Origin: Patescibacteria group bacterium
Lineage (GTDB): Bacteria; Patescibacteriota; Dojkabacteria; J137
Reading direction: 5' to 3'
Assembly: GCA_963169855.1 (NCBI GenBank)
Contig: CAUJCN010000002.1
Span: forward strand, 133,508-197,507
DNA length: 64,000 bases
Shown here: positions 5,384 through 45,327 of the stretch, piece after piece
How positions within the stretch are numbered: position 1 is the first letter of the stretch
Layout of the letters: each line of letters opens with the position of its first letter
Notes under the pieces: generated by a model
What the model was told of the DNA's origin: nothing
Seen by the model: the letters and a program-made list of their open reading frames with translations, nothing else
Databases searched by the model: none
Translations under genes and position numbers: made by a program

Positions 5384-6379
5384 ATGATACTTGAATTCAC
5401 TAGCAAAGGAATCTATTGCCCTCAGGGAGATTTCTACATTGATCCAATCTCCGCAGTTGAAACCGCAGTAATTACGCATGGACACTCAGATCACGCTAGA
5501 GGTGGACATAAACGATACATTGCCACACCGGAAACCATCGCCATTATGAAATTTAGGTTAAGCAAGAAGATTAATGCTGACCCACTTGAATATAGAAAAC
5601 AAATCAACATAAAAGACGTAATAGTGTCGCTACATCCAGCAGGTCACGTTTTAGGGTCTGCTCAGGTAAGAATTGAGTACGGTGGCGAGGTAGCGGTGGT
5701 TACTGGTGACTATAAAGTTGAATACGATAACGTCTCGGAACCTTTTGAGCTTGTTAAGTGCAACACTTTCGTTACAGAATGCACTTTTGGATTACCATTA
5801 TTCAACTGGCAACCTCAGGAACAAGTATTCGACGAAATCAACGAATGGTGGAAAAAGAATTCTGAACAAGGGATAAATAGTGTTCTCAATTGCTATTCCT
5901 TAGGTAAAGCTCAAAGAATATTAAAGAATATTGATCCCTCAATTGGACCAATAGTTTGCCATGATACTATTGAGGATCATAATAAAATCCACGAGCAATT
6001 TGGGATCAAGCTACCCAAAAGAACTGACGCTTCCAACCATGATAATAAAGCCTTGATCCTAACACCAACATCATCTTCCAAAACTGAATGGTTTAAACAA
6101 TTTGGAGATCACAGACTTGGAAATGCCTCTGGCTGGATGATGTTTGATGGCTTTCACAGAGGTGTTCACAAAGGATTTGTTTTATCAGACCACTGTGATT
6201 GGAAAGCCTTAAATTGGGTCATAAAAAATACAGGTGCAGATTTAATTTATTTAATGCACGGTTATACTAAAGAATACTCCAACTATTTAAACGGACAAGG
6301 AGTTTTTACAAAGGTTGTTGAAGAATTAGGAAAGACAATTTCAGAAAACTATGCAGAATCTTCCGAATATGCTGAATAG
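5384..6379 (+). CDS. MBL-fold metallo-hydrolase resembling the ligase-associated DNA-damage-response exonuclease
   Basis: The N-terminus ILEFTSKGIYCPQGDFYIDP…AVITHGHSDHARG shows the HxHxDH MBL motif in the context typical of that exonuclease family. No ligase or Lhr helicase is adjacent. Confidence 0.5.
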   Translation: MILEFTSKGIYCPQGDFYIDPISAVETAVITHGHSDHARGGHKRYIATPETIAIMKFRLSKKINADPLEYRKQINIKDVIVSLHPAGHVLGSAQVRIEYGGEVAVVTGDYKVEYDNVSEPFELVKCNTFVTECTFGLPLFNWQPQEQVFDEINEWWKKNSEQGINSVLNCYSLGKAQRILKNIDPSIGPIVCHDTIEDHNKIHEQFGIKLPKRTDASNHDNKALILTPTSSSKTEWFKQFGDHRLGNASGWMMFDGFHRGVHKGFVLSDHCDWKALNWVIKNTGADLIYLMHGYTKEYSNYLNGQGVFTKVVEELGKTISENYAESSEYAE

Positions 6380-6863
6380 TTAATCTGACCGATACTTTTA
6401 ATAGATTAATCCTCTCTTTTAAATTAACCATAATTGTTCATATAAAGTGAACACTATTTTTCTTTCAATGAATATCGTGACACTTAAATTTAAGTGTTCA
6501 TTTTTTGAACAAAACAATTTTACCCAAAATTACTCAAAAACTATTGTTATAAAAGAATATTAATTGATTATTCTCTATTGTGAGAATAATGGTAGTAAAA
6601 CATGAATTCTAGCGATGTAATATTAACGTAACACAAAAGTATAATTATATATGTTACGATTATATCTACGTAAATTATTGTGTATCAATAACACTTCTAT
6701 TTATTTACTATCCCTTTCGGACTCAACAATGGGCACATCCACACATTTGTCCTAATGTCCTAATAGCCATTCAATATATTGTGGATAAAAAGAGAAGCCC
6801 TAAAGATAAATGTATCGTATACGGAACAGATTTAACCTGCAATTTTAAGTGTGTGGATAAGTT

Positions 6864-9632
6864 TTAGTGAGTCAACGTATCTAGGTAAGTTATCAATGTG
6901 GCAACTTGCCCTCCCTCTAGGGTTAACATGTGCGATCTGTAAGACTTTCTTCCTAGCCAAGATTTCCAGCCTACAATAGTATTTTTATCGGCGAAGTTTT
7001 TAGTTATCAAAGAGAGTGCGGATGGAGTAAAAGCCTCCACGTCTACTTTATCTGCTGACTTTATACCTAATACATATTCAAGAATCTTTCTAGAAACAAC
7101 ATTTCCGTGAATCTTCCAAAAGTCTGTTAAAGAGAATCTTTTAGACAGAACTTCTTCTCCAAAAATGATACCTAGTTCCGACAAGTTACTACCACCACAA
7201 ACAAGCCCTTCGATATGTGATCTAATTTTTTCTTGTGCACCTAAAAAGATATTTCGATTACTTTTAATAAGCTCGACCACTTTACTAGCTCCTTGTAACT
7301 CGTCTCTGTAATACCCAGATTCTTCCCTTAGAACAAAGTTAATGACAAAATCGCCAACGGCTACTCCACAATTTAAAGACTCCGTCTCTAGAACAGGAAC
7401 TACAGGAAATCCAAAGAAGCTATTTAGCTGATCTGCTAATTCAACATCCTTTTTAATTTCATCCTTGACTTCTACTTTTTCAGCCATTCTTTTTTCAACG
7501 TCAATTTTCAACTGCTTAATAGAAAATCTGATTTTCTGATCAGCGAAATCATACTCGGAGACTAAATATAGATCCCCTTGAACATTGTAAAATTCGTATC
7601 CGGTATCATGATGAACTTCTCTACAGCCATCAATATTCTTTCCCCTAACAACACCTCCTCGGTTAAATATAGAGCCTTTTTCGTAAGGATATGTTCGGTT
7701 AAACCCATCCCAATCCATGTTAACATCATAATATTGAGGACTTAATCTCAGTTCAATAGCATCTTTGAGCTTTTTCAAGCTTCTACCTTCGATACTATGC
7801 TCGGCTGTTATTTTATCTATTATCGAATCTAAGCAATCAACTAATTCACCATTATATTCGTAGTTAGCAAAATCAGTTTGCGGTTTCAATTCTGGAGTAT
7901 TTACTCTCTTCATTTCCGGGATTGCAGTATTATTCTGAGGATGAGTAATGTTAAAGAAGTACTCGTTTGATTTTCCCCATCTGTTTCTGAATTTCTTATA
8001 AATTCTTTTCAAACTCTCTAAATCGAGCTCGCCCTTAAGAACTAAATCATTTAAAAAAGATAAATAGGAATTTAGTAACTTAGATACATTAGTTTTCACG
8101 ATGCTTAGGAATTCCCCAGATAGCTCAAAATCCTTCATCATCGAAACAAATTGTAAAAACTCTTCTATTTCTACATCTAAAATACCCGATACCTCTGTCT
8201 TATCTAACTGGGTAAATTGGGTTTCCATCAAGTTAATTACCTCTGAATCCCACGAATTCTTTTCATAAAGGGAGGATCCTGCCAAAAAAGATGCACATTT
8301 GTTTAGCAAGATAAGTCGCATTCTGGATCCTCCAAGTGGATTTAAATCATCGATCACAAACGACTCGAATCCAATTATCATACCAAGACTGATTCTTTGC
8401 ATTTTTCTCGACAAATTCGTCACAACACCGGTAGCATTTAAACCAGTAATATTAAGAATTGGTGCTATTTTCATAGCAAGCGAAACTAAATCAGAATGGT
8501 TTTCATAAAGACCCTTGTAGATCAACTGATAGAACCCTTTTACTGTTGCACCAAATTTGTAAAAATCCTCTGGATTGATTCCCATGTATTCTTGAACATA
8601 TGAAACCATTTGACTAAGAGGAATTTTTTCGAGATCTTGGGCATGTGTCAAAAATCTGGCAATCCAAATCGCTGCCTTTTGAGTAGAGAGATCTTCAACG
8701 CCACTAAGACTCCTAAGCGGCTCCATGTATTTCATGATTGCTGTAGTCAAGTCTCTTACTGTGTCCTCTGACAAACCTTGCTCTACAGGTTTGGCATTAT
8801 TTACTTTCCTTACAACTACAGATGGATTAGACTCAAACCAAGTAGTTCCATATAACTCCCTTCTACTCTCAACCTCTTCGGGATGATTTTTTTCTAAGTA
8901 CACCAAGTATTCATTGATTTCTTTTTCGATTTGCTTTGCAAGCACAGCTTTTTTCTCTGGAAACATCGTAGCAATATCCATAATTACATTCATCTTTTGT
9001 ATATATGAAACATCATCACTTAACGGGGCATTCCAGTACTCACGACTATATTTAGATCTATAATCAATTATGCTGTCTAGAAGTTCAGGAAGAAGGGCTT
9101 CATCTCCGAAACCAACTCCCAACGCATAAAAAGTGGATACAAAGAAATCCTCATACACTCCTGCAATAAATGATTTCTTCCATTTTCGCAAATCCAGAAA
9201 TCTAGCTTTTGTAGTAAAGTATTTAAAAAGAATCAGAAAATCTGAATCAGACATCTCTCTTTCCAGGAAATCTTCAGCGAATCTCTTTGCATAGCTTGCA
9301 AATCCATTCTCGACCAAACTAAAACCTTCGAAATCTATAGACTGCTCAAAAATTTCGGAAAGTTCTCTAATCATCTGCCTAAGAACATCAAACCCTAAAA
9401 TGCCCAATCTATCTTGGATATTCGATAAATCACTTTGAATAATTACTCTAAAGTTTACAAACAGGAATTCACACGCCATTTTTAAACGATCCTTGTCTGC
9501 AGATTGTGGAAAACGCTCCGGGTGTTTTTGAAGGACATGATCGTAAAGAAAATTCCCAAGCTTTTCAGCTTGCTGTGGAAGACCTTCACCGTGTTCAAAT
9601 ATGCTCATTTTGTCGCCAATGACTGCGACCAA
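6864..9632 (-). CDS. Large (922 aa) uncharacterised cytoplasmic protein
   Basis: A long uninterrupted ORF lies 10 nt downstream of pepF on the same strand. It has no P-loop, no HExxH, no TM segments and no recognisable domain motifs. Confidence 0.5.
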   Translation of the reverse strand: MVAVIGDKMSIFEHGEGLPQQAEKLGNFLYDHVLQKHPERFPQSADKDRLKMACEFLFVNFRVIIQSDLSNIQDRLGILGFDVLRQMIRELSEIFEQSIDFEGFSLVENGFASYAKRFAEDFLEREMSDSDFLILFKYFTTKARFLDLRKWKKSFIAGVYEDFFVSTFYALGVGFGDEALLPELLDSIIDYRSKYSREYWNAPLSDDVSYIQKMNVIMDIATMFPEKKAVLAKQIEKEINEYLVYLEKNHPEEVESRRELYGTTWFESNPSVVVRKVNNAKPVEQGLSEDTVRDLTTAIMKYMEPLRSLSGVEDLSTQKAAIWIARFLTHAQDLEKIPLSQMVSYVQEYMGINPEDFYKFGATVKGFYQLIYKGLYENHSDLVSLAMKIAPILNITGLNATGVVTNLSRKMQRISLGMIIGFESFVIDDLNPLGGSRMRLILLNKCASFLAGSSLYEKNSWDSEVINLMETQFTQLDKTEVSGILDVEIEEFLQFVSMMKDFELSGEFLSIVKTNVSKLLNSYLSFLNDLVLKGELDLESLKRIYKKFRNRWGKSNEYFFNITHPQNNTAIPEMKRVNTPELKPQTDFANYEYNGELVDCLDSIIDKITAEHSIEGRSLKKLKDAIELRLSPQYYDVNMDWDGFNRTYPYEKGSIFNRGGVVRGKNIDGCREVHHDTGYEFYNVQGDLYLVSEYDFADQKIRFSIKQLKIDVEKRMAEKVEVKDEIKKDVELADQLNSFFGFPVVPVLETESLNCGVAVGDFVINFVLREESGYYRDELQGASKVVELIKSNRNIFLGAQEKIRSHIEGLVCGGSNLSELGIIFGEEVLSKRFSLTDFWKIHGNVVSRKILEYVLGIKSADKVDVEAFTPSALSLITKNFADKNTIVGWKSWLGRKSYRSHMLTLEGGQVATLITYLDTLTH

Positions 9633-9642
9633 TTATACTATT

Positions 9643-11403
9643 CTACATTGCTTTCTGTATAGCGGATTCTACTTCAGACAAGCCTTTCTGCCAGAAAGAT
9701 GCATGAGAAATATCTAGCCCTGCTTGCTTAAAAATTTGAAGAGGAGATTGTGATCTTCCTGCTCTCATAAAATCTTTCACCTTTTCAATATTTTTTGAAT
9801 CAGCCCTGACCAAAGATTGCAAAGCCTTTGAAATCAGCAATCCAGAGGAATACGAATAAACATAGAAAAAACTTCGAATATGACTCCAATAAACCCACCA
9901 GTTCTCTGCCCCTGTATTCATCTTTACAGCATCGCCCATATAACTCTTCATATGCTTCAAAAAGATTTCTCCTATTTCTTTGGTTGATAAGAAACCCTTT
10001 TCTCTGAATGTTTTATGCAGCTCAGTTTCAAAGTTGTAGCAAGCTACTTGTCTAAAGATAGTAGAAATCTCATCATTTAATCTTTCCATTGCTAGAAGAC
10101 GTTTTTCCTGAGGCTTTAATCCTTTTTCCACTTCTTCTAAAACGAAATCCTCCATGAATGTACTTGCAACTTCCGCAGTTGCTAATGATGCTCCAAAATT
10201 GACTGAATTTTGAGCCCTAGCCAGTGTAAAATGGATCCCATGCCCAACTTCGTGTGCTAGTGTTAGAACATCATTAAGCCGGTCTGTATAGTTCATTAAA
10301 ATGAAAATTGGGTCTTTGTTGTTTAACGCCGAGCAGTAAGCTCCGCTTCTTTTCCCAGTTTTAGGATAAAAATCTACTTGTTCATTATTAATAAAATCGA
10401 AGTAGATACTTTTGAATTCTGAATCTAAGTTTCCCAAAGTCTTTCCGACTAAATCAACCCCTTCTTCAATTGTATATTTCTTTTCTACATCGCCAACTGG
10501 AACATTTCGCTCATGGTAATCAAGTTGCTTAACTCCTAAATATTTTGCTTTCAGCCTGTAATACTCTTGGGCCAGATGAAAGTTAGAAGTCACAGTTTGA
10601 ACTAGTGCGTCTACTACATAAGATTCAATATCATCAGACATATGTCTTTGACTATCAGGTCTATCGAACCCTCTCAGCTTGTCTGTATTGAACTTATCCT
10701 CAAGAATTGAATTCAATTCGTAGGTAGCAGCTTCTGAGTGTTTTTTGTTAATTTTATGAACTAACTTAGCTGCGGAATCTCTTTCAACTTTATCTGTGCT
10801 GTTAATTTTAGACATAATTTCGGAGAATGGAACAACTTCAGATTTACCTTTAGAATTTGTAACTTTGCCTTTTTCTTTTGCAATGAAATCAGAAACCATC
10901 TGAACCCAGTTACTTTTCGAAGTCTTGGATTTTATATTCATAATCTTTTCTTGGTCCTCTGTTAACCAGTGTTTTGCATTGTTATATGCCATTTCCAAGA
11001 AGTGCTTATACTCCGAAAGTAAAACACTTTCCAGCATAGCTTTCTGATTCGCTACAGGAGTTTTTGCAACTTTAAGATTGAAGAATTCAACTTGATTGTA
11101 TAAATCGATAGCTTTTACATGTAGCTTATTAATCCTAGCTTTGATTTCGGTATTTTCTTGCTCTAAATCCTCCCATAATCCTAAGTACTGACTTTCTCTA
11201 GCGTAAAAATCGTAATCAGTTGTTAAAACGCAGTATTCATCCAAGGCTTCTTTAAGAACTTTATCCGAAGTTTGAAAATCATCTCTAACTGACCATTTTT
11301 TTATAAAAGCTTCAGTCTTCATTAGAACTTCAGATTCGTATTCTGCAATATACTTTTCTTCATCTTTGAAAAGTTTAGAAAGATTCCATTTTGTTTTAAT
11401 CAT
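9643..11403 (-). CDS. pepF: Oligoendopeptidase F (peptidase family M3B)
   Basis: The HEVGHGIH zinc motif, the DFYPKTGKRSGAYCS motif and the overall ~590 aa length match PepF. Confidence 0.8.
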   Translation of the reverse strand: MIKTKWNLSKLFKDEEKYIAEYESEVLMKTEAFIKKWSVRDDFQTSDKVLKEALDEYCVLTTDYDFYARESQYLGLWEDLEQENTEIKARINKLHVKAIDLYNQVEFFNLKVAKTPVANQKAMLESVLLSEYKHFLEMAYNNAKHWLTEDQEKIMNIKSKTSKSNWVQMVSDFIAKEKGKVTNSKGKSEVVPFSEIMSKINSTDKVERDSAAKLVHKINKKHSEAATYELNSILEDKFNTDKLRGFDRPDSQRHMSDDIESYVVDALVQTVTSNFHLAQEYYRLKAKYLGVKQLDYHERNVPVGDVEKKYTIEEGVDLVGKTLGNLDSEFKSIYFDFINNEQVDFYPKTGKRSGAYCSALNNKDPIFILMNYTDRLNDVLTLAHEVGHGIHFTLARAQNSVNFGASLATAEVASTFMEDFVLEEVEKGLKPQEKRLLAMERLNDEISTIFRQVACYNFETELHKTFREKGFLSTKEIGEIFLKHMKSYMGDAVKMNTGAENWWVYWSHIRSFFYVYSYSSGLLISKALQSLVRADSKNIEKVKDFMRAGRSQSPLQIFKQAGLDISHASFWQKGLSEVESAIQKAM

Positions 11404-11669
11404 ACTTTTAATATAACTTCGTAAGCACCCTTTTGGCCATTAAAGTAACCAGCTTCCGAAAACTCCTTTACCAATCTGTGAGTCTTCAGTAGCTTTGCCA
11501 CTAATGGTTTAACCATCTTACCAGTGCCTGTAATAATTAATAAAGCTTTATTTCCACTAACATGCTCATCCTCCAAGTATTCGTTCAAAATCTTTTCTAC
11601 ATCGAAATGATCCAATATTCCAAACTCATGAAAATCCAATTTTGACTGGTATAGAAATTTTAATCTCAT
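11400..11669 (-). CDS. Smr (small MutS-related) domain protein
   Basis: LDFHEFGILD…ALLIITGTG…NGQKGAYEV resembles the Smr domain pattern (LDLHG…vIhGkG…GGdGa). The stop overlaps the pepF start by 4 nt. Confidence 0.5.
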   Translation of the reverse strand: MRLKFLYQSKLDFHEFGILDHFDVEKILNEYLEDEHVSGNKALLIITGTGKMVKPLVAKLLKTHRLVKEFSEAGYFNGQKGAYEVILKV

Positions 11670-11754
11670 TTTTTTATTTTAGCAAAAATGTTGTTGAAAC
11701 ATACTTTTTTGACATTGTTAGCTGACAAAAACAGATTACATGTTATAATTCGGC

Positions 11755-12849
11755 ATGTACAGAGAAGCTGTAAGAACATTTCCAAAGGACTATTCGGAGA
11801 CTAATGTCAGAAGAATAGTGGGTGCAATAGACATCTCACGCTCGCTGACAGTCTTCGCACCTCAAGGTTATGGCAAAAGCGTCTTAGCTAGATATCTAGT
11901 ATATAACAGTCGCTTCAAAAGAAAATACAGTAAAATGAGAAATATCCACATGGTTTACGTAAATCTCACTGAACTGTCTGCCGAAGCATTCGATGAGATT
12001 ACAATTAACAACATTCAGCCAGAAAATAACAAACAACGTAGATTCTTAGAAATTTTGGCAAAGAGCATATTTAATTCCTATACAGAACTTTCTCAAACGC
12101 AGCTACAAGAAAAATTAAGACCTATTGTCGAAAATGCTGATTATAAAAATGAATTCTACAGAATCTTTGAGAGCTTCTTAAACAATGTTAAATACAAAAC
12201 AGTATTCTTTGTTCTTGATGGAATGGAATCTATAGCTGGAAAACGGTTCGAAGCTCAAAGAGAGTTTTTAAGTACATTGCGAGAGCAGCAAATCCCAAGA
12301 ATCGAATATATTTTCTTCATGGGAGATTTAGAATTCTTGGCGAATATTCATCGAGAACAATGGGGAAGCCTAGCCAACATAATTGCCTCTAAAATTCTTT
12401 TGATGAAGATGCCCGAAACAGCAGAGTCTATTTTGCCAATGCATTTTGACCAGAGTCGGTTCAGATTCAATTTCTTTACGAAACGAACATCTGCCTTTAG
12501 AGAAAGACTGAAGCTTATCAGGAAAATAACGGGAGGTTATCCACCATACTTTAAGTATTTGTTCAAACTAAGAAGTACTCGTGAACTAGAGACTGCAGTC
12601 CTAAGCAGGGAATTGCACTCAGTTTCTCAGAGCCTTTACGATTCTCTAAACTCTGAACATAGAGAACTCCTTATTCAATTACTTTCAGGAGAAAGAATTA
12701 GCCAGTCATCCCAAGCAGCAATTGAATTAATTGCACTTGGAATTTTGATTCCCCACGGGAAAGAGATAGGTATGTTCTCGGCAATTTTTGAACACTTCAT
12801 TAGAAACGAAGTGAAAAAACTACACCAGAATTCCCAACAGCCTCAATAG
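11755..12849 (+). CDS. Degenerate P-loop NTPase (AAA+/STAND-like) with a C-terminal helical domain
   Basis: It has a Walker A-like FAPQGYGKS and a Walker B-like VFFVLDGME. It is divergent from the Smr-pepF-922aa operon. Confidence 0.45.
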   Translation: MYREAVRTFPKDYSETNVRRIVGAIDISRSLTVFAPQGYGKSVLARYLVYNSRFKRKYSKMRNIHMVYVNLTELSAEAFDEITINNIQPENNKQRRFLEILAKSIFNSYTELSQTQLQEKLRPIVENADYKNEFYRIFESFLNNVKYKTVFFVLDGMESIAGKRFEAQREFLSTLREQQIPRIEYIFFMGDLEFLANIHREQWGSLANIIASKILLMKMPETAESILPMHFDQSRFRFNFFTKRTSAFRERLKLIRKITGGYPPYFKYLFKLRSTRELETAVLSRELHSVSQSLYDSLNSEHRELLIQLLSGERISQSSQAAIELIALGILIPHGKEIGMFSAIFEHFIRNEVKKLHQNSQQPQ

Positions 12850-43992: not shown

Positions 43993-45327
43993 ATGCTTGA
44001 ATTTAACCACGTCTCAAAAATATACGATAACAATATAGTAGCTGTAAATGACATTTCGTTCAAAGTCAAAGAAGGAGAATTTGTTTTTCTAATCGGTGCT
44101 TCTGGAAGTGGAAAAACCACAGCTATTAAAATGTTGATTCGTGACGAGAACCCAACTACGGGAGCTGTATACTTCAGAGATCGAGACATCACAAAGATCG
44201 GTAGGTCAAGAGTTTATAAATTAAGACGAGAAATCGGAGTTATTTTTCAAGACTATAAACTTATTCAAGATAAAACCGCATACGAAAATGTAGCTTTCGC
44301 AATGGAAGTTGCAGGTAAGAAGAATAAAGAAATCAAAGAAACTGTACCATACGTTTTAGATATTGTAGGACTTAATCATAGATCGAACTCTTTCCCTAGA
44401 CAATTATCCGGAGGGGAACAGCAGAGAGTTGCTATCGCAAGAGCTATTGCGAATAGTCCAAAAGTATTGATTGCTGATGAACCGACAGGAAACCTTGACC
44501 CTTCAAGTGCATGGGACATTGTTCAAATTTTGAACAAAATAAACAACTGGGGAACAACTATTATCATGTCTACCCACGGTACCGACATTGTCAATTCTCT
44601 TAACAAAAGAGTTATTCAAATGGAGTCTGGAAGAATCATTCGAGATGACAGTAAGGGGCAATACGAATTAGCTCAGAAAAAAGACTTTGAACAAAAAATG
44701 GATCAAAATGCTGAGGAAGTTGTAAAGAAGAAAGACAAATTAAAAATCAAAATCGATATGGATGAACCATCCGAAGAACCAGAGTTGGAAGTCGAAGAAG
44801 GATTAGAAATTTCTGAAGCTCCTCGTAAAGGAATTTTTGGATTCTTTAAAAGAGTAAAACCAAGAGTAGAAACATTCAATGCCTTAGAGCAGATATTAGG
44901 AAAGCCTTCAAAAGAGAACGATAGCCAAGAATACGAATTAGAAGAAGAAACAGATTCTGAAGCAATAAATAACATCGAGGAAAATACTGTAGCAAATCAA
45001 ATGCAAACTTCAGAGAAGGAAGACAAGAAAAAAATCAAAAAAGAATCTGTAAAAAAAGAAGTTAAGAAAAAGCCAACAAAGAAATCCAGACCATTGAGTA
45101 TGGATAACTCTAATGGAGAAATTCACACTGGGTTAGGAAACACTTCTCTTGACCAGCTTGAATTAGAACCTGAGTTAATAGAAGTATTAAAAGAAGCAGG
45201 GTACAATAATGTAGAGGAAATAATAAACGATGGGGTTGAAAACCTAAGAGAAAAAGTTGATTTAAGTAAAAGAGAATTATTAAAAATAGCTAGATCAATA
45301 AAATCTACTCATTCATCAGAAGAATAA
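43993..45327 (+). CDS. ftsE: Cell-division ABC ATPase FtsE with a ~220-aa C-terminal K/E-rich extension ending in a helix-hairpin-helix (RNAP alpha-CTD-like) domain
   Basis: Walker [10 protein letters not shown], the signature [14 protein letters not shown] and Walker B LIADEPTG are present. The tail ends in [42 protein letters not shown]. Confidence 0.85.

Follow-up and report, generated by a model that had tools for sequence, protein, structure and literature searches.

This study analyzed a locus in a 64,000-nucleotide (nt) stretch of contig CAUJCN010000002.1 from a Patescibacteria group bacterium, hereafter termed the window, in which a large open reading frame (ORF) of 922 codons, termed the big gene, follows the genes smr and pepF. 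A small P-loop NTPase is encoded divergently from smr, and an AT-rich spacer separates the big gene from a convergent exonuclease gene. An earlier sequence-only reading had proposed that Smr, PepF, the large protein, and the NTPase form a stress, quality-control, or defense-like unit. Our results favor, with fair though far from complete confidence, the view that the locus is a conserved smr-pepF pair and convergent exonuclease backbone with lineage-specific additions, and that the big gene is a fast-evolving, dispensable orphan that is probably expressed independently. The backbone would have received three additions in this lineage, namely a STAND-like NTPase gene evolving at a normal rate, a conserved noncoding element, and the orphan gene, the last of which lies exactly between the pepF stop codon and the conserved noncoding spacer.

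We used PepF as an anchor and examined the loci of its closest relatives; together with L003, the locus of the only homologue of the big protein, seven related loci (eight counting the window) were compared. The smr gene was adjacent to pepF in all seven, whereas L003 alone carried the big gene (two of eight when the window is counted). The gene order in L003 was that of the window, namely the NTPase gene (reverse strand), smr, pepF, the big gene, the spacer, the exonuclease gene (reverse strand), the genes for a protein of 75 amino acids (aa) and a 610-aa membrane protein, and a glycosyltransferase gene. This likeness is a synteny of the whole region over approximately 17 kb and not a specific linkage. 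L007 and L008, the PepF of which is 71% identical to that of the window, carried the NTPase gene, smr, pepF, 716 bp of noncoding DNA, and the exonuclease gene, and no big gene. In the other four loci (L005, L006, L009, and L010, termed clade B; PepF identity, 65–67%), an ATP-binding cassette (ABC) transporter gene took the place of the NTPase gene and was followed by smr and pepF; the exonuclease gene lay 10–29 bp downstream, and both the big gene and the spacer were missing. Relatives with a PepF identity of 47–53% had no smr beside pepF. A tblastn search for the big gene in L007/L008, L005, L006, L009, and L010 found it absent. These findings contradict a fixed linkage of the big protein to pepF or smr, and the proposed four-gene module fared no better because the NTPase gene occurs without the big gene in L007 and both are missing in clade B.

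A codon-level comparison revealed that L003 and L007 encode closely similar proteins (identity, 91% for PepF and 95% for the exonuclease), with the genome of the window as the outgroup (69–75%). The most economical history would be that the ancestor of this sub-clade already had the big gene and that L007 lost it recently. Because it has been lost in this close relative, the big gene is dispensable. A blastn search for a remnant of the gene in L007 yielded only a 12-nt match. As a separate observation, positions 2863–2907 of L007 may represent what is left of the final 15 codons of the big gene (GDVLAAVTSFSIETH compared with GDIAVLLTYLDTETH) in which the stop codon is mutated; the tblastn match (E = 3) was not significant. 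A comparison of the big protein with a 673-aa protein of clade B was dropped: the latter is of low complexity, has a different C-terminal domain, and was not linked to the big protein by an exhaustive HMMER search.

The big gene evolves far faster than its neighbors. The protein identity between the window and L003 was 79% for the glycosyltransferase, 77% for Smr, 75% for the exonuclease, 71% for the NTPase, and 69% for PepF, and it was 59% for a 457-aa membrane protein and 52% for the 610-aa membrane protein. The corresponding value for the big protein was approximately 30–31%.

The large protein had been described as impossible to place in a known family, and this held in every collection searched. 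Queries with the whole protein, its halves, and its homologue returned only noise in Pfam, NCBIfam, PADLOC, and PHROGs, and single-sequence and two-sequence-profile queries returned no match at E ≤ 10 among the PDB sequences. The exhaustive HMMER scan, which covered 1.84 billion representative proteins, identified a single relative, the 936-aa protein P0002 (E = 3e-100), which aligns with the big protein end to end at the low identity given above. P0002 is encoded at the identical gene position on L003, a 17-kb contig of a metagenome-assembled genome (MAG) labeled "uncultured Candidatus Saccharibacteria bacterium", the source project of which is a study of Polish wastewater and river samples (PMC9405806). 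A word-indexed search of 5.8 billion clusters with sequence and profile queries recovered the big protein alone, its sources being an 818-kb contig and several read-set assemblies, and the copies in several independent assemblies were identical. A back-translated motif scan of the GTDB genomes returned the MAG of L003 and no further member, motif scans returned none in the JGI metagenomes or IMG/VR, and no paralogue was found within the window. A search of the literature found nothing on this locus. With P0002, the big protein forms an orphan family, both known members of which come from a single narrow lineage of Candidatus Saccharibacteria. The ORF is a genuine protein-coding gene because 922 stop-free codons would arise by chance with a probability of approximately 1e-29 (our estimate, with approximately 7% stops among random codons at this base composition) and because the 936-aa homologue exists.

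The big protein is acidic (isoelectric point, 5.2) and has no signal peptide and no transmembrane segment. The earlier statements that it carries no Walker A motif, no zinc-protease motif, and no transmembrane helix were borne out: a motif scan found no Walker A, HExxH, or CxxC motif in either homologue, and the highest 19-residue hydropathy was 1.36. The identity profile against P0002 revealed 10–28% identity over residues 1–520, 42% around residues 521–560, and 52–65% in two cores comprising residues 641–720 and 841–922. The C-terminal region of approximately 335 aa is conserved, the final residues YLDTxTH being shared by both homologues, and the N-terminal region of approximately 520 aa is hypervariable and nearly unalignable. 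Residues 1–520 were predicted to be all-helical in a low-confidence AlphaFold2 model, and no internal repeats were found in the protein. On the basis of these findings, the big protein appears to be a soluble, acidic protein of two parts, a hypervariable, all-helical N-terminal region that we interpret as the recognition or scaffold part and a conserved alpha/beta C-terminal module that we interpret as the working part.

The motif scan revealed one catalytic-type pattern common to both homologues, GD(L/V)YLV(S/T)EYDFADQK. It comprises GD687-x10-D698-Q-K700 in the big protein and reads GDLYLVSEYDFADQK and GDVYLVTEYDFADQK in the two homologues. The pattern is located within the best-conserved block, in a stretch predicted to fold as strand-strand-strand-helix by a second low-confidence model, that of residues 520–922. 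We regard this nuclease-like motif as a lead only.

The region between pepF and the big gene provided evidence on the start codon and expression of the gene. In the direction of transcription, the pepF stop codon TAG (9645–9643) is followed by AATAG, a TATAAT box (9637–9632), a hairpin with a 5-bp stem (GTCGC-N8-GCGAC, 9629–9612), ACAAA, and an ATG (9608–9606). This order (TAG-AATAG-TATAAT, hairpin, and then GGCGACAAA-ATG) is common to the window and L003. TAGAATAGTATAAT and GGCGACAAAATG are identical in L003 (4145–4184), whereas the 4-fold sites of the flanking genes are saturated at an identity of 0.36. The hairpin was predicted in both the window and L003 (−7.7 and −8.4 kcal/mol; z-scores, −1.3 and −2.6); the two share its 3' arm and 8-nt loop but not its 5' arm. 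The stretch 9661..9632 scored as promoter-like, with 10 of 12 positions matching. The ATG at codon 9 of the ORF aligns with the start of the homologue, and the TTG that opens the ORF overlaps the TATAAT box. Because TAGAATAGTATAAT, the hairpin, and GGCGACAAAATG are conserved with the only homologue, the ATG at 9608 is most likely the start codon, which would give a protein of 914 aa and a junction of 34 nt. The conservation of the TATAAT box and hairpin ahead of this ATG suggests that the big gene probably has its own −10 element and promoter. In L007, the block comprising TAGAATAGTATAAT and the hairpin is absent directly after the pepF stop codon, as expected if the block belongs to the cassette of the big gene.

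These results modify the operon proposed for the three genes. The junctions of 4 and 10 nt exist as the ORFs stand, the former being the overlap of smr and pepF (ATGA) and the latter extending from the pepF stop codon to the TTG of the big ORF, but the latter junction more likely measures 34 nt. The smr and pepF genes are probably co-translated, as their 4-nt overlap indicates; by contrast, the short junction ahead of the big gene is weak evidence for an operon because the gene seems to carry its own −10 box. The coordinates of the locus, including those of the four ORFs originally described, which were all reproduced by a six-frame ORF list, are presented in Table 1.

Table 1. Features of the locus, in positions of the window.
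Feature	Coordinates	Strand	Remarks
Big ORF, orphan large protein	6864..9632	-	922 aa from TTG; six-frame ORF list
pepF, M3-family oligoendopeptidase (PepF-like)	9643..11403	-	586 aa; intact HEVGH zinc motif
smr, stand-alone Smr-domain protein	11400..11669	-	89 aa; LDFHE and ITGTGK motifs
Small STAND-like P-loop NTPase	11755..12849	+	364 aa; divergent from smr
Exonuclease gene, convergent neighbor	5384..6379	+	ligase-associated DNA damage response exonuclease (MBL/beta-CASP), TIGR04122
Conserved AT-rich noncoding spacer	6380..6863	.	between the convergent big gene and exonuclease gene
Junction of pepF and the big gene	9606..9645	-	stop, TATAAT box, hairpin, ATG
Perfect TTATCCACA (DnaA-box consensus)	6852..6860	-	3 nt past the stop codon of the big gene
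Second perfect copy of TTATCCACA	6780..6788	-	72 bp from the first, orientation identical
Imperfect box ACATCCACA	6735..6743	+	7/9 positions; opposite orientation
Palindrome TGTTCA-N7-TGAACA	6435..6453	.	near the exonuclease end of the spacer
Second palindrome, TGTTCA-N5-TGAACA	6495..6512	.	60 bp from the first
Palindrome ATTATTCTC-N6-GAGAATAAT	6567..6590	.	the one named by the sequence-only reading

The divergently encoded NTPase had been described as a degenerate, STAND-like P-loop protein. Its resemblance to the STAND class was confirmed by a narrow margin because the NACHT-like profile NPHP3_N was matched at 26.1 bits against a cut-off of 24.8 (E = 1.1e-5), a marginal pass; the matches to AAA_16 and AAA_22 fell below their cut-offs. 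The term degenerate was only partly appropriate. The Walker A motif APQGYGKS (residues 35–42) fits the canonical pattern [AG]x4GK[ST] and reads APYGYGKS in L003 and L007, whereas the Walker B motif FFVLDGME (residues 151–158) has lost its second acidic residue, which is replaced by glycine; both orthologues (L003 and L007) have VFVIDDLE at this place. The protein of the window may therefore bind ATP without hydrolyzing it. Its C-terminal half is helical, and searches of Pfam, NCBIfam, and PDB sequences found no further domain, sensor repeats, or effector in its 364 aa. No PDB-sequence or NCBIfam match to the protein itself was found, and a scan of the JGI metagenomes returned none. The only match in PADLOC-DB 2.0 was a faint one to mad8 (E = 7e-4, 17 bits). 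A promoter-like sequence, CTGACA-16-TGnTATAAT, is located ahead of the gene at 11722–11749. The orthologues in L003 and L007 are 70–71% identical to the protein of the window. We consider it a minimal STAND-like NTPase with a normal rate of evolution and no coupling to the big gene, because it shows this level of identity and is present in L007, which lacks the big gene.

The remaining genes of the backbone encode readily recognizable proteins. Smr matched PF01713 at 44.4 bits against a cut-off of 25.7 (E = 1.9e-11) and carries LDFHE at residues 11–15 and ITGTGK at residues 46–51, the Smr family being characterized by the motifs LDxH and (H/T)GxG. Public gene calls in this genome give Smr a length of 79 aa. 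All seven relatives align with the 89-aa form from its first residue onward (68–80% identity), so the annotated 79-aa start is probably too far downstream. PepF matched PF01432 (3.9e-38, 132 bits) and PF08439 (Peptidase_M3_N; 1.3e-6, 28.9 bits), and its HEVGH motif is intact. It aligned over its full length with the NCBIfam models TIGR02290 (2.5e-111, 373.5 bits against a cut-off of 561.7) and TIGR00181 (6.3e-85, 286 bits against a cut-off of 490.6), and its profile matches identify it as a member of the M3 family and not as a certified PepF equivalog. Its homologues number in the thousands, with 47–53% identical ones in the candidate phyla radiation (CPR) and other bacteria. Smr and PepF are ordinary housekeeping-type proteins, and their adjacency is synteny at the level of the lineage. 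The exonuclease matched TIGR04122 above the cut-off (1.5e-119) and is 72–75% identical in all relatives, and its gene is part of the conserved backbone. The usual operon partners of such an exonuclease are a ligase, an Lhr helicase, and a phosphoesterase. At the locus of the window, the gene occurs without these partners; a 75-aa gene without known identity and the gene for the 610-aa membrane protein are located upstream of it.

The noncoding spacer between the big gene and the exonuclease gene had been noted as unusually long and AT-rich, which proved accurate: it measures 484 bp at 27% guanine-plus-cytosine (GC) content and is the longest ORF-free gap in the window (median, 56 bp). The spacers of the window, L003, and L007 are colinear. 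Approximately 600 bp of the L003 and L007 spacers could be aligned, with 62–66% identity compared with 48–50% at the 4-fold sites of the flanking genes. Because the former exceeds the latter, some constraint evidently acts on the spacer, which also occurs where the big gene is missing. No ORF was conserved in any frame, no Rfam match was found at E ≤ 1, and the consensus fold of the three sequences was weak on both strands (RNAalifold, −30 and −22 kcal/mol over 456 columns), with covariation near zero. Promoter-like and terminator-like sites were no more common in the spacer than in shuffled sequences, and no other copy of it was found in the window or the clade B loci.

We then considered the sequence elements within the spacer. 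Four perfect copies of TTATCCACA occur in the 64 kb, two in the spacer and two inside genes, and the two perfect boxes of the spacer and one box matching at seven of nine positions fall within 126 bp. The TCCACA core is enriched approximately 12-fold in the spacer, at 6.2 per kb compared with 0.53 per kb in the window. The box spacing of approximately 72 bp was also present in L003 (6998–7006 and 7070–7078) and L007. The box homologous to 6852..6860 is TTCTCCACA in L003 and CTGTCCACA in L007, which depart from the consensus at position 3 in the former and at positions 1 and 3 in the latter. The conserved blocks of the spacer include the two TCCACA boxes, a TGTTACGTAA block, and the TGTTCA-N4-7-TGAACA palindrome. 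The last of these has three sites in the 64 kb (the third at 44520–44536), where approximately 0.2 would be expected; counted as strand matches, six were observed against 0.41 expected, a number reached in none of 100 shuffles. L003 retains the palindrome of 6435..6453 at the homologous place, and L007 retains half of it. TGTTCA-N4-7-TGAACA looks like a candidate operator for a regulator. The palindrome at 6567–6590 that had been singled out as an example is indeed present, but its pairs are not conserved in L003 or L007, and it is by itself compatible with chance. Perfect inverted repeats as a class were likewise not above chance (2 observed compared with 0.58 expected from Markov shuffles, P = 0.14).

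The spacer is not read as a replication origin (oriC) or terminus because the GC skew follows the gene strand with no switch at 6.4–6.9 kb, no real ORF of the window carries the DnaA DNA-binding signature that is the hallmark of dnaA, no dif-like site was found within the window, and the flanking genes converge on the spacer. It is possible that the spacer represents a candidate DnaA-box cluster or another protein-binding regulatory region. Two further observations concern the spacers of the relatives. In L003 and L007, a promoter-like sequence, TTGAAA-16-TGnTACTAT, is located between the two boxes. In the L003/L007 species, an intergenic repeat of approximately 50 nt (..GATCTTCAAATTTCTnATTTC..) also recurs in three places, namely the part of the spacer near the exonuclease gene, the interval separating smr from pepF, and one further site (L003, 7560–7609, 2328–2374, and 15474–15506; L007, 3510–3567 and 1031–1084). 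This repeat is absent from the genome of the window.

A GC-rich island outside the locus was also observed at positions 1000–2000 of the window, with a GC content of 51–52% compared with approximately 35% for the genome. It contains only overlapping ORFs of 160–189 aa on both strands and had no Pfam match and no Rfam match at E ≤ 1. The island is located between a DUF559/Vsr-like endonuclease gene (497–895) and a glycosyltransferase gene, and its place in the relatives is taken by other small ORFs without known identity. The island may have a foreign origin, or it may encode a structured RNA not described so far.

The presence and absence of the genes largely refute the idea of a single module for stress or quality control or for anti-phage defense built from Smr, PepF, the large protein, and the NTPase encoded opposite them, and we now consider this idea improbable. 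The tight gene spacing with the smr/pepF overlap, the identical order of the four genes in L003, and the STAND-like NTPase with its faint mad8 match would speak for it. However, the L003 match is one of whole-region synteny, and the parts occur separately, with the NTPase, Smr, and PepF genes lacking the big gene in L007, smr and pepF lacking both the NTPase gene and the big gene in clade B, and more distant pepF genes having no smr neighbor. Moreover, PADLOC-DB 2.0 gave no match for the big protein, PepF, or Smr and no defense model passed, and the evolutionary rates are discordant (30% compared with 69–77% identity). A replication module, in which the big protein and spacer would represent a plasmid- or phage-like rep gene that has integrated together with its origin, or else a chromosomal oriC or DnaA-box cluster, is more doubtful still. 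The two perfect TTATCCACA boxes and imperfect third box in an AT-rich spacer directly after the gene, the box spacing conserved in three genomes, and the several conserved palindromes are consistent with this idea. Nevertheless, the spacer persists in L007 without the big gene and is missing from clade B at this site, and the big protein has no NTPase, primase, or winged-helix Rep signature and no phage or plasmid family match. The absence of a dnaA hallmark, dif-like site, and skew switch, the convergence of the flanking genes, and the off-consensus boxes of L003 and L007 also argue against it. The least credible alternative, to which we give a negligible chance, is that the 922-aa ORF is an annotation artefact, namely an ORF arisen by chance, a pseudogene, or two fused genes. 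A homologue in only one other genome, poor structure predictions, and a non-ATG start might suggest as much, but the improbable stop-free length, the homologue aligning end to end, the identical protein from several independent assemblies, and the conserved proper ATG start all contradict it.

The role of the orphan protein itself is the point on which the account is most tentative. The C-terminal module of approximately 335 aa, interpreted above as the working part, is conceivably an Mg-dependent PD-(D/E)xK-type nuclease or nucleic-acid-binding domain; in that case, the protein would need no partner for a conflict-type role in defense or in interaction with a host bacterium. The rapid divergence and the presence/absence pattern would fit such a role, yet this reading, with variable recognition in one half of the protein and possibly nuclease-like activity in its conserved C-terminal half, is an unlikely one, held with low confidence. 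Its bolder version, to which we give scarcely as much credence, would be a new single-gene conflict system of Saccharibacteria, an anti-phage or anti-host effector combining hypervariable recognition of a fast-changing target with a nuclease-like effector, and, separately, a spacer that is a new regulatory or DnaA-titration locus in an ultra-small genome. The main rival to the conflict reading is relaxed constraint, in which the gene would be heading for loss in a shrinking genome with no conflict role or notable enzyme activity, for example as a structural or scaffold protein. This possibility is still on the unlikely side but deserves serious weight. The very low identity over residues 1–520, the outright loss in L007, the lack of a detected catalytic family, and the native-like composition are consistent with it; against it, both copies are intact ORFs of approximately 2.8 kb in an AT-rich genome, the C-terminal cores and YLDTxTH end are conserved, and so are the upstream −10 box and hairpin. 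The intact ORFs, conserved cores, and conserved upstream signals indicate that part of the protein, as well as the signals for its expression, is still under purifying selection.

Several results weigh against our account of an independently expressed orphan with a putative conflict-type function. Fast evolution and loss fit relaxed constraint just as well as conflict, and the presence/absence pattern was derived from few and partly short metagenomic contigs. No terminator was found between pepF and the big gene, which leaves room for co-transcription with smr-pepF. The AlphaFold2 models of the full-length protein from a single sequence (predicted local distance difference test [pLDDT], 37.8) and of residues 520–922 from the two-sequence alignment (pLDDT, 34.8) were unusable, and Foldseek searches of the PDB with the latter returned nothing at E ≤ 0.001, the best probability of ≤0.15 being noise. 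Residues 586–922 (the C-terminal 337 aa) had no Pfam match even at E ≤ 10, and none of the PADLOC or PHROG models matched the big protein. The D...(D/E)xK pattern, although kept in both homologues, is loose and easily matched by chance. The GC content of the big gene equals that of its neighbors and bears no mark of a mobile or foreign origin. No profile, fold, or experiment backs any function of the big protein.

The practical bearing of these findings is mainly negative. The pairing of a nuclease-type domain, a peptidase, a protein without a family, and a STAND-like NTPase is an accident of local synteny and should not be carried forward as a candidate defense or quality-control system. Its split into hypervariable and conserved parts and its recent presence/absence difference make the big protein a reasonable candidate for a role in conflict or host interaction; the lineage is epibiotic and has reduced genomes, and genes of this type are poorly known in it. 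A conserved noncoding element of 0.5 kb with consensus DnaA-type boxes is unusual in a window with such short intergenic gaps.

Orphan genes are common in Patescibacteria, and the big protein resembles the lineage-restricted orphans (ORFans) of Patescibacteria/CPR in having no family, a narrow range, and a rapid rate of divergence, in being present in one and absent from the other of two close relatives, and in being carried in a small genome (818-kb contig). It differs from them in its unusually large size, clear two-part conservation, and conserved expression signals, and the latter two features suggest a retained function rather than an annotation artefact. The GD-x10-DxK pattern in a predicted beta-beta-beta-alpha stretch, with the acidic residue E680 upstream, recalls the PD-(D/E)xK nuclease superfamily, the catalytic motif of which has this spacing; the big protein, however, matches the profile of no member Pfam family, and its membership is not established.

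The other elements of the locus can be compared with known systems in a similar manner. The NTPase shares with STAND/NACHT-like NTPases (NPHP3_N and AAA_16) the Walker A motif, a Walker B motif of the form hhhhD, and helices following the NTPase domain; however, it comprises only 364 aa, has glycine at the second acidic position of Walker B in the window, has no sensor repeats or effector, and matches no defense model. The 89-aa Smr protein shares PF01713 and the LDxH and TGxG-type motifs with stand-alone Smr proteins such as SmrB and SmrA of Escherichia coli and with the C-terminal domain of MutS2. SmrB cleaves mRNA on collided ribosomes. In contrast to these proteins, the 89-aa protein is a bare domain without an N-terminal extension; it scores far below the equivalog cut-offs of SmrA and MutS2, and its linkage to pepF was seen in this lineage only. 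PepF aligns over its full length with oligoendopeptidase F (M3B, TIGR00181/TIGR02290) and has an intact HExxH motif, but it falls below the equivalog and subfamily cut-offs of NCBIfam. Finally, the spacer resembles the DnaA-box clusters (DBCs) that lie outside oriC, such as datA of E. coli and the DBCs of Bacillus subtilis, in its clustered TTATCCACA boxes, its noncoding nature, and the absence of a dnaA gene from the window, whereas it differs from them in having only two or three putative boxes, off-consensus boxes in the relatives, and other conserved palindromes.

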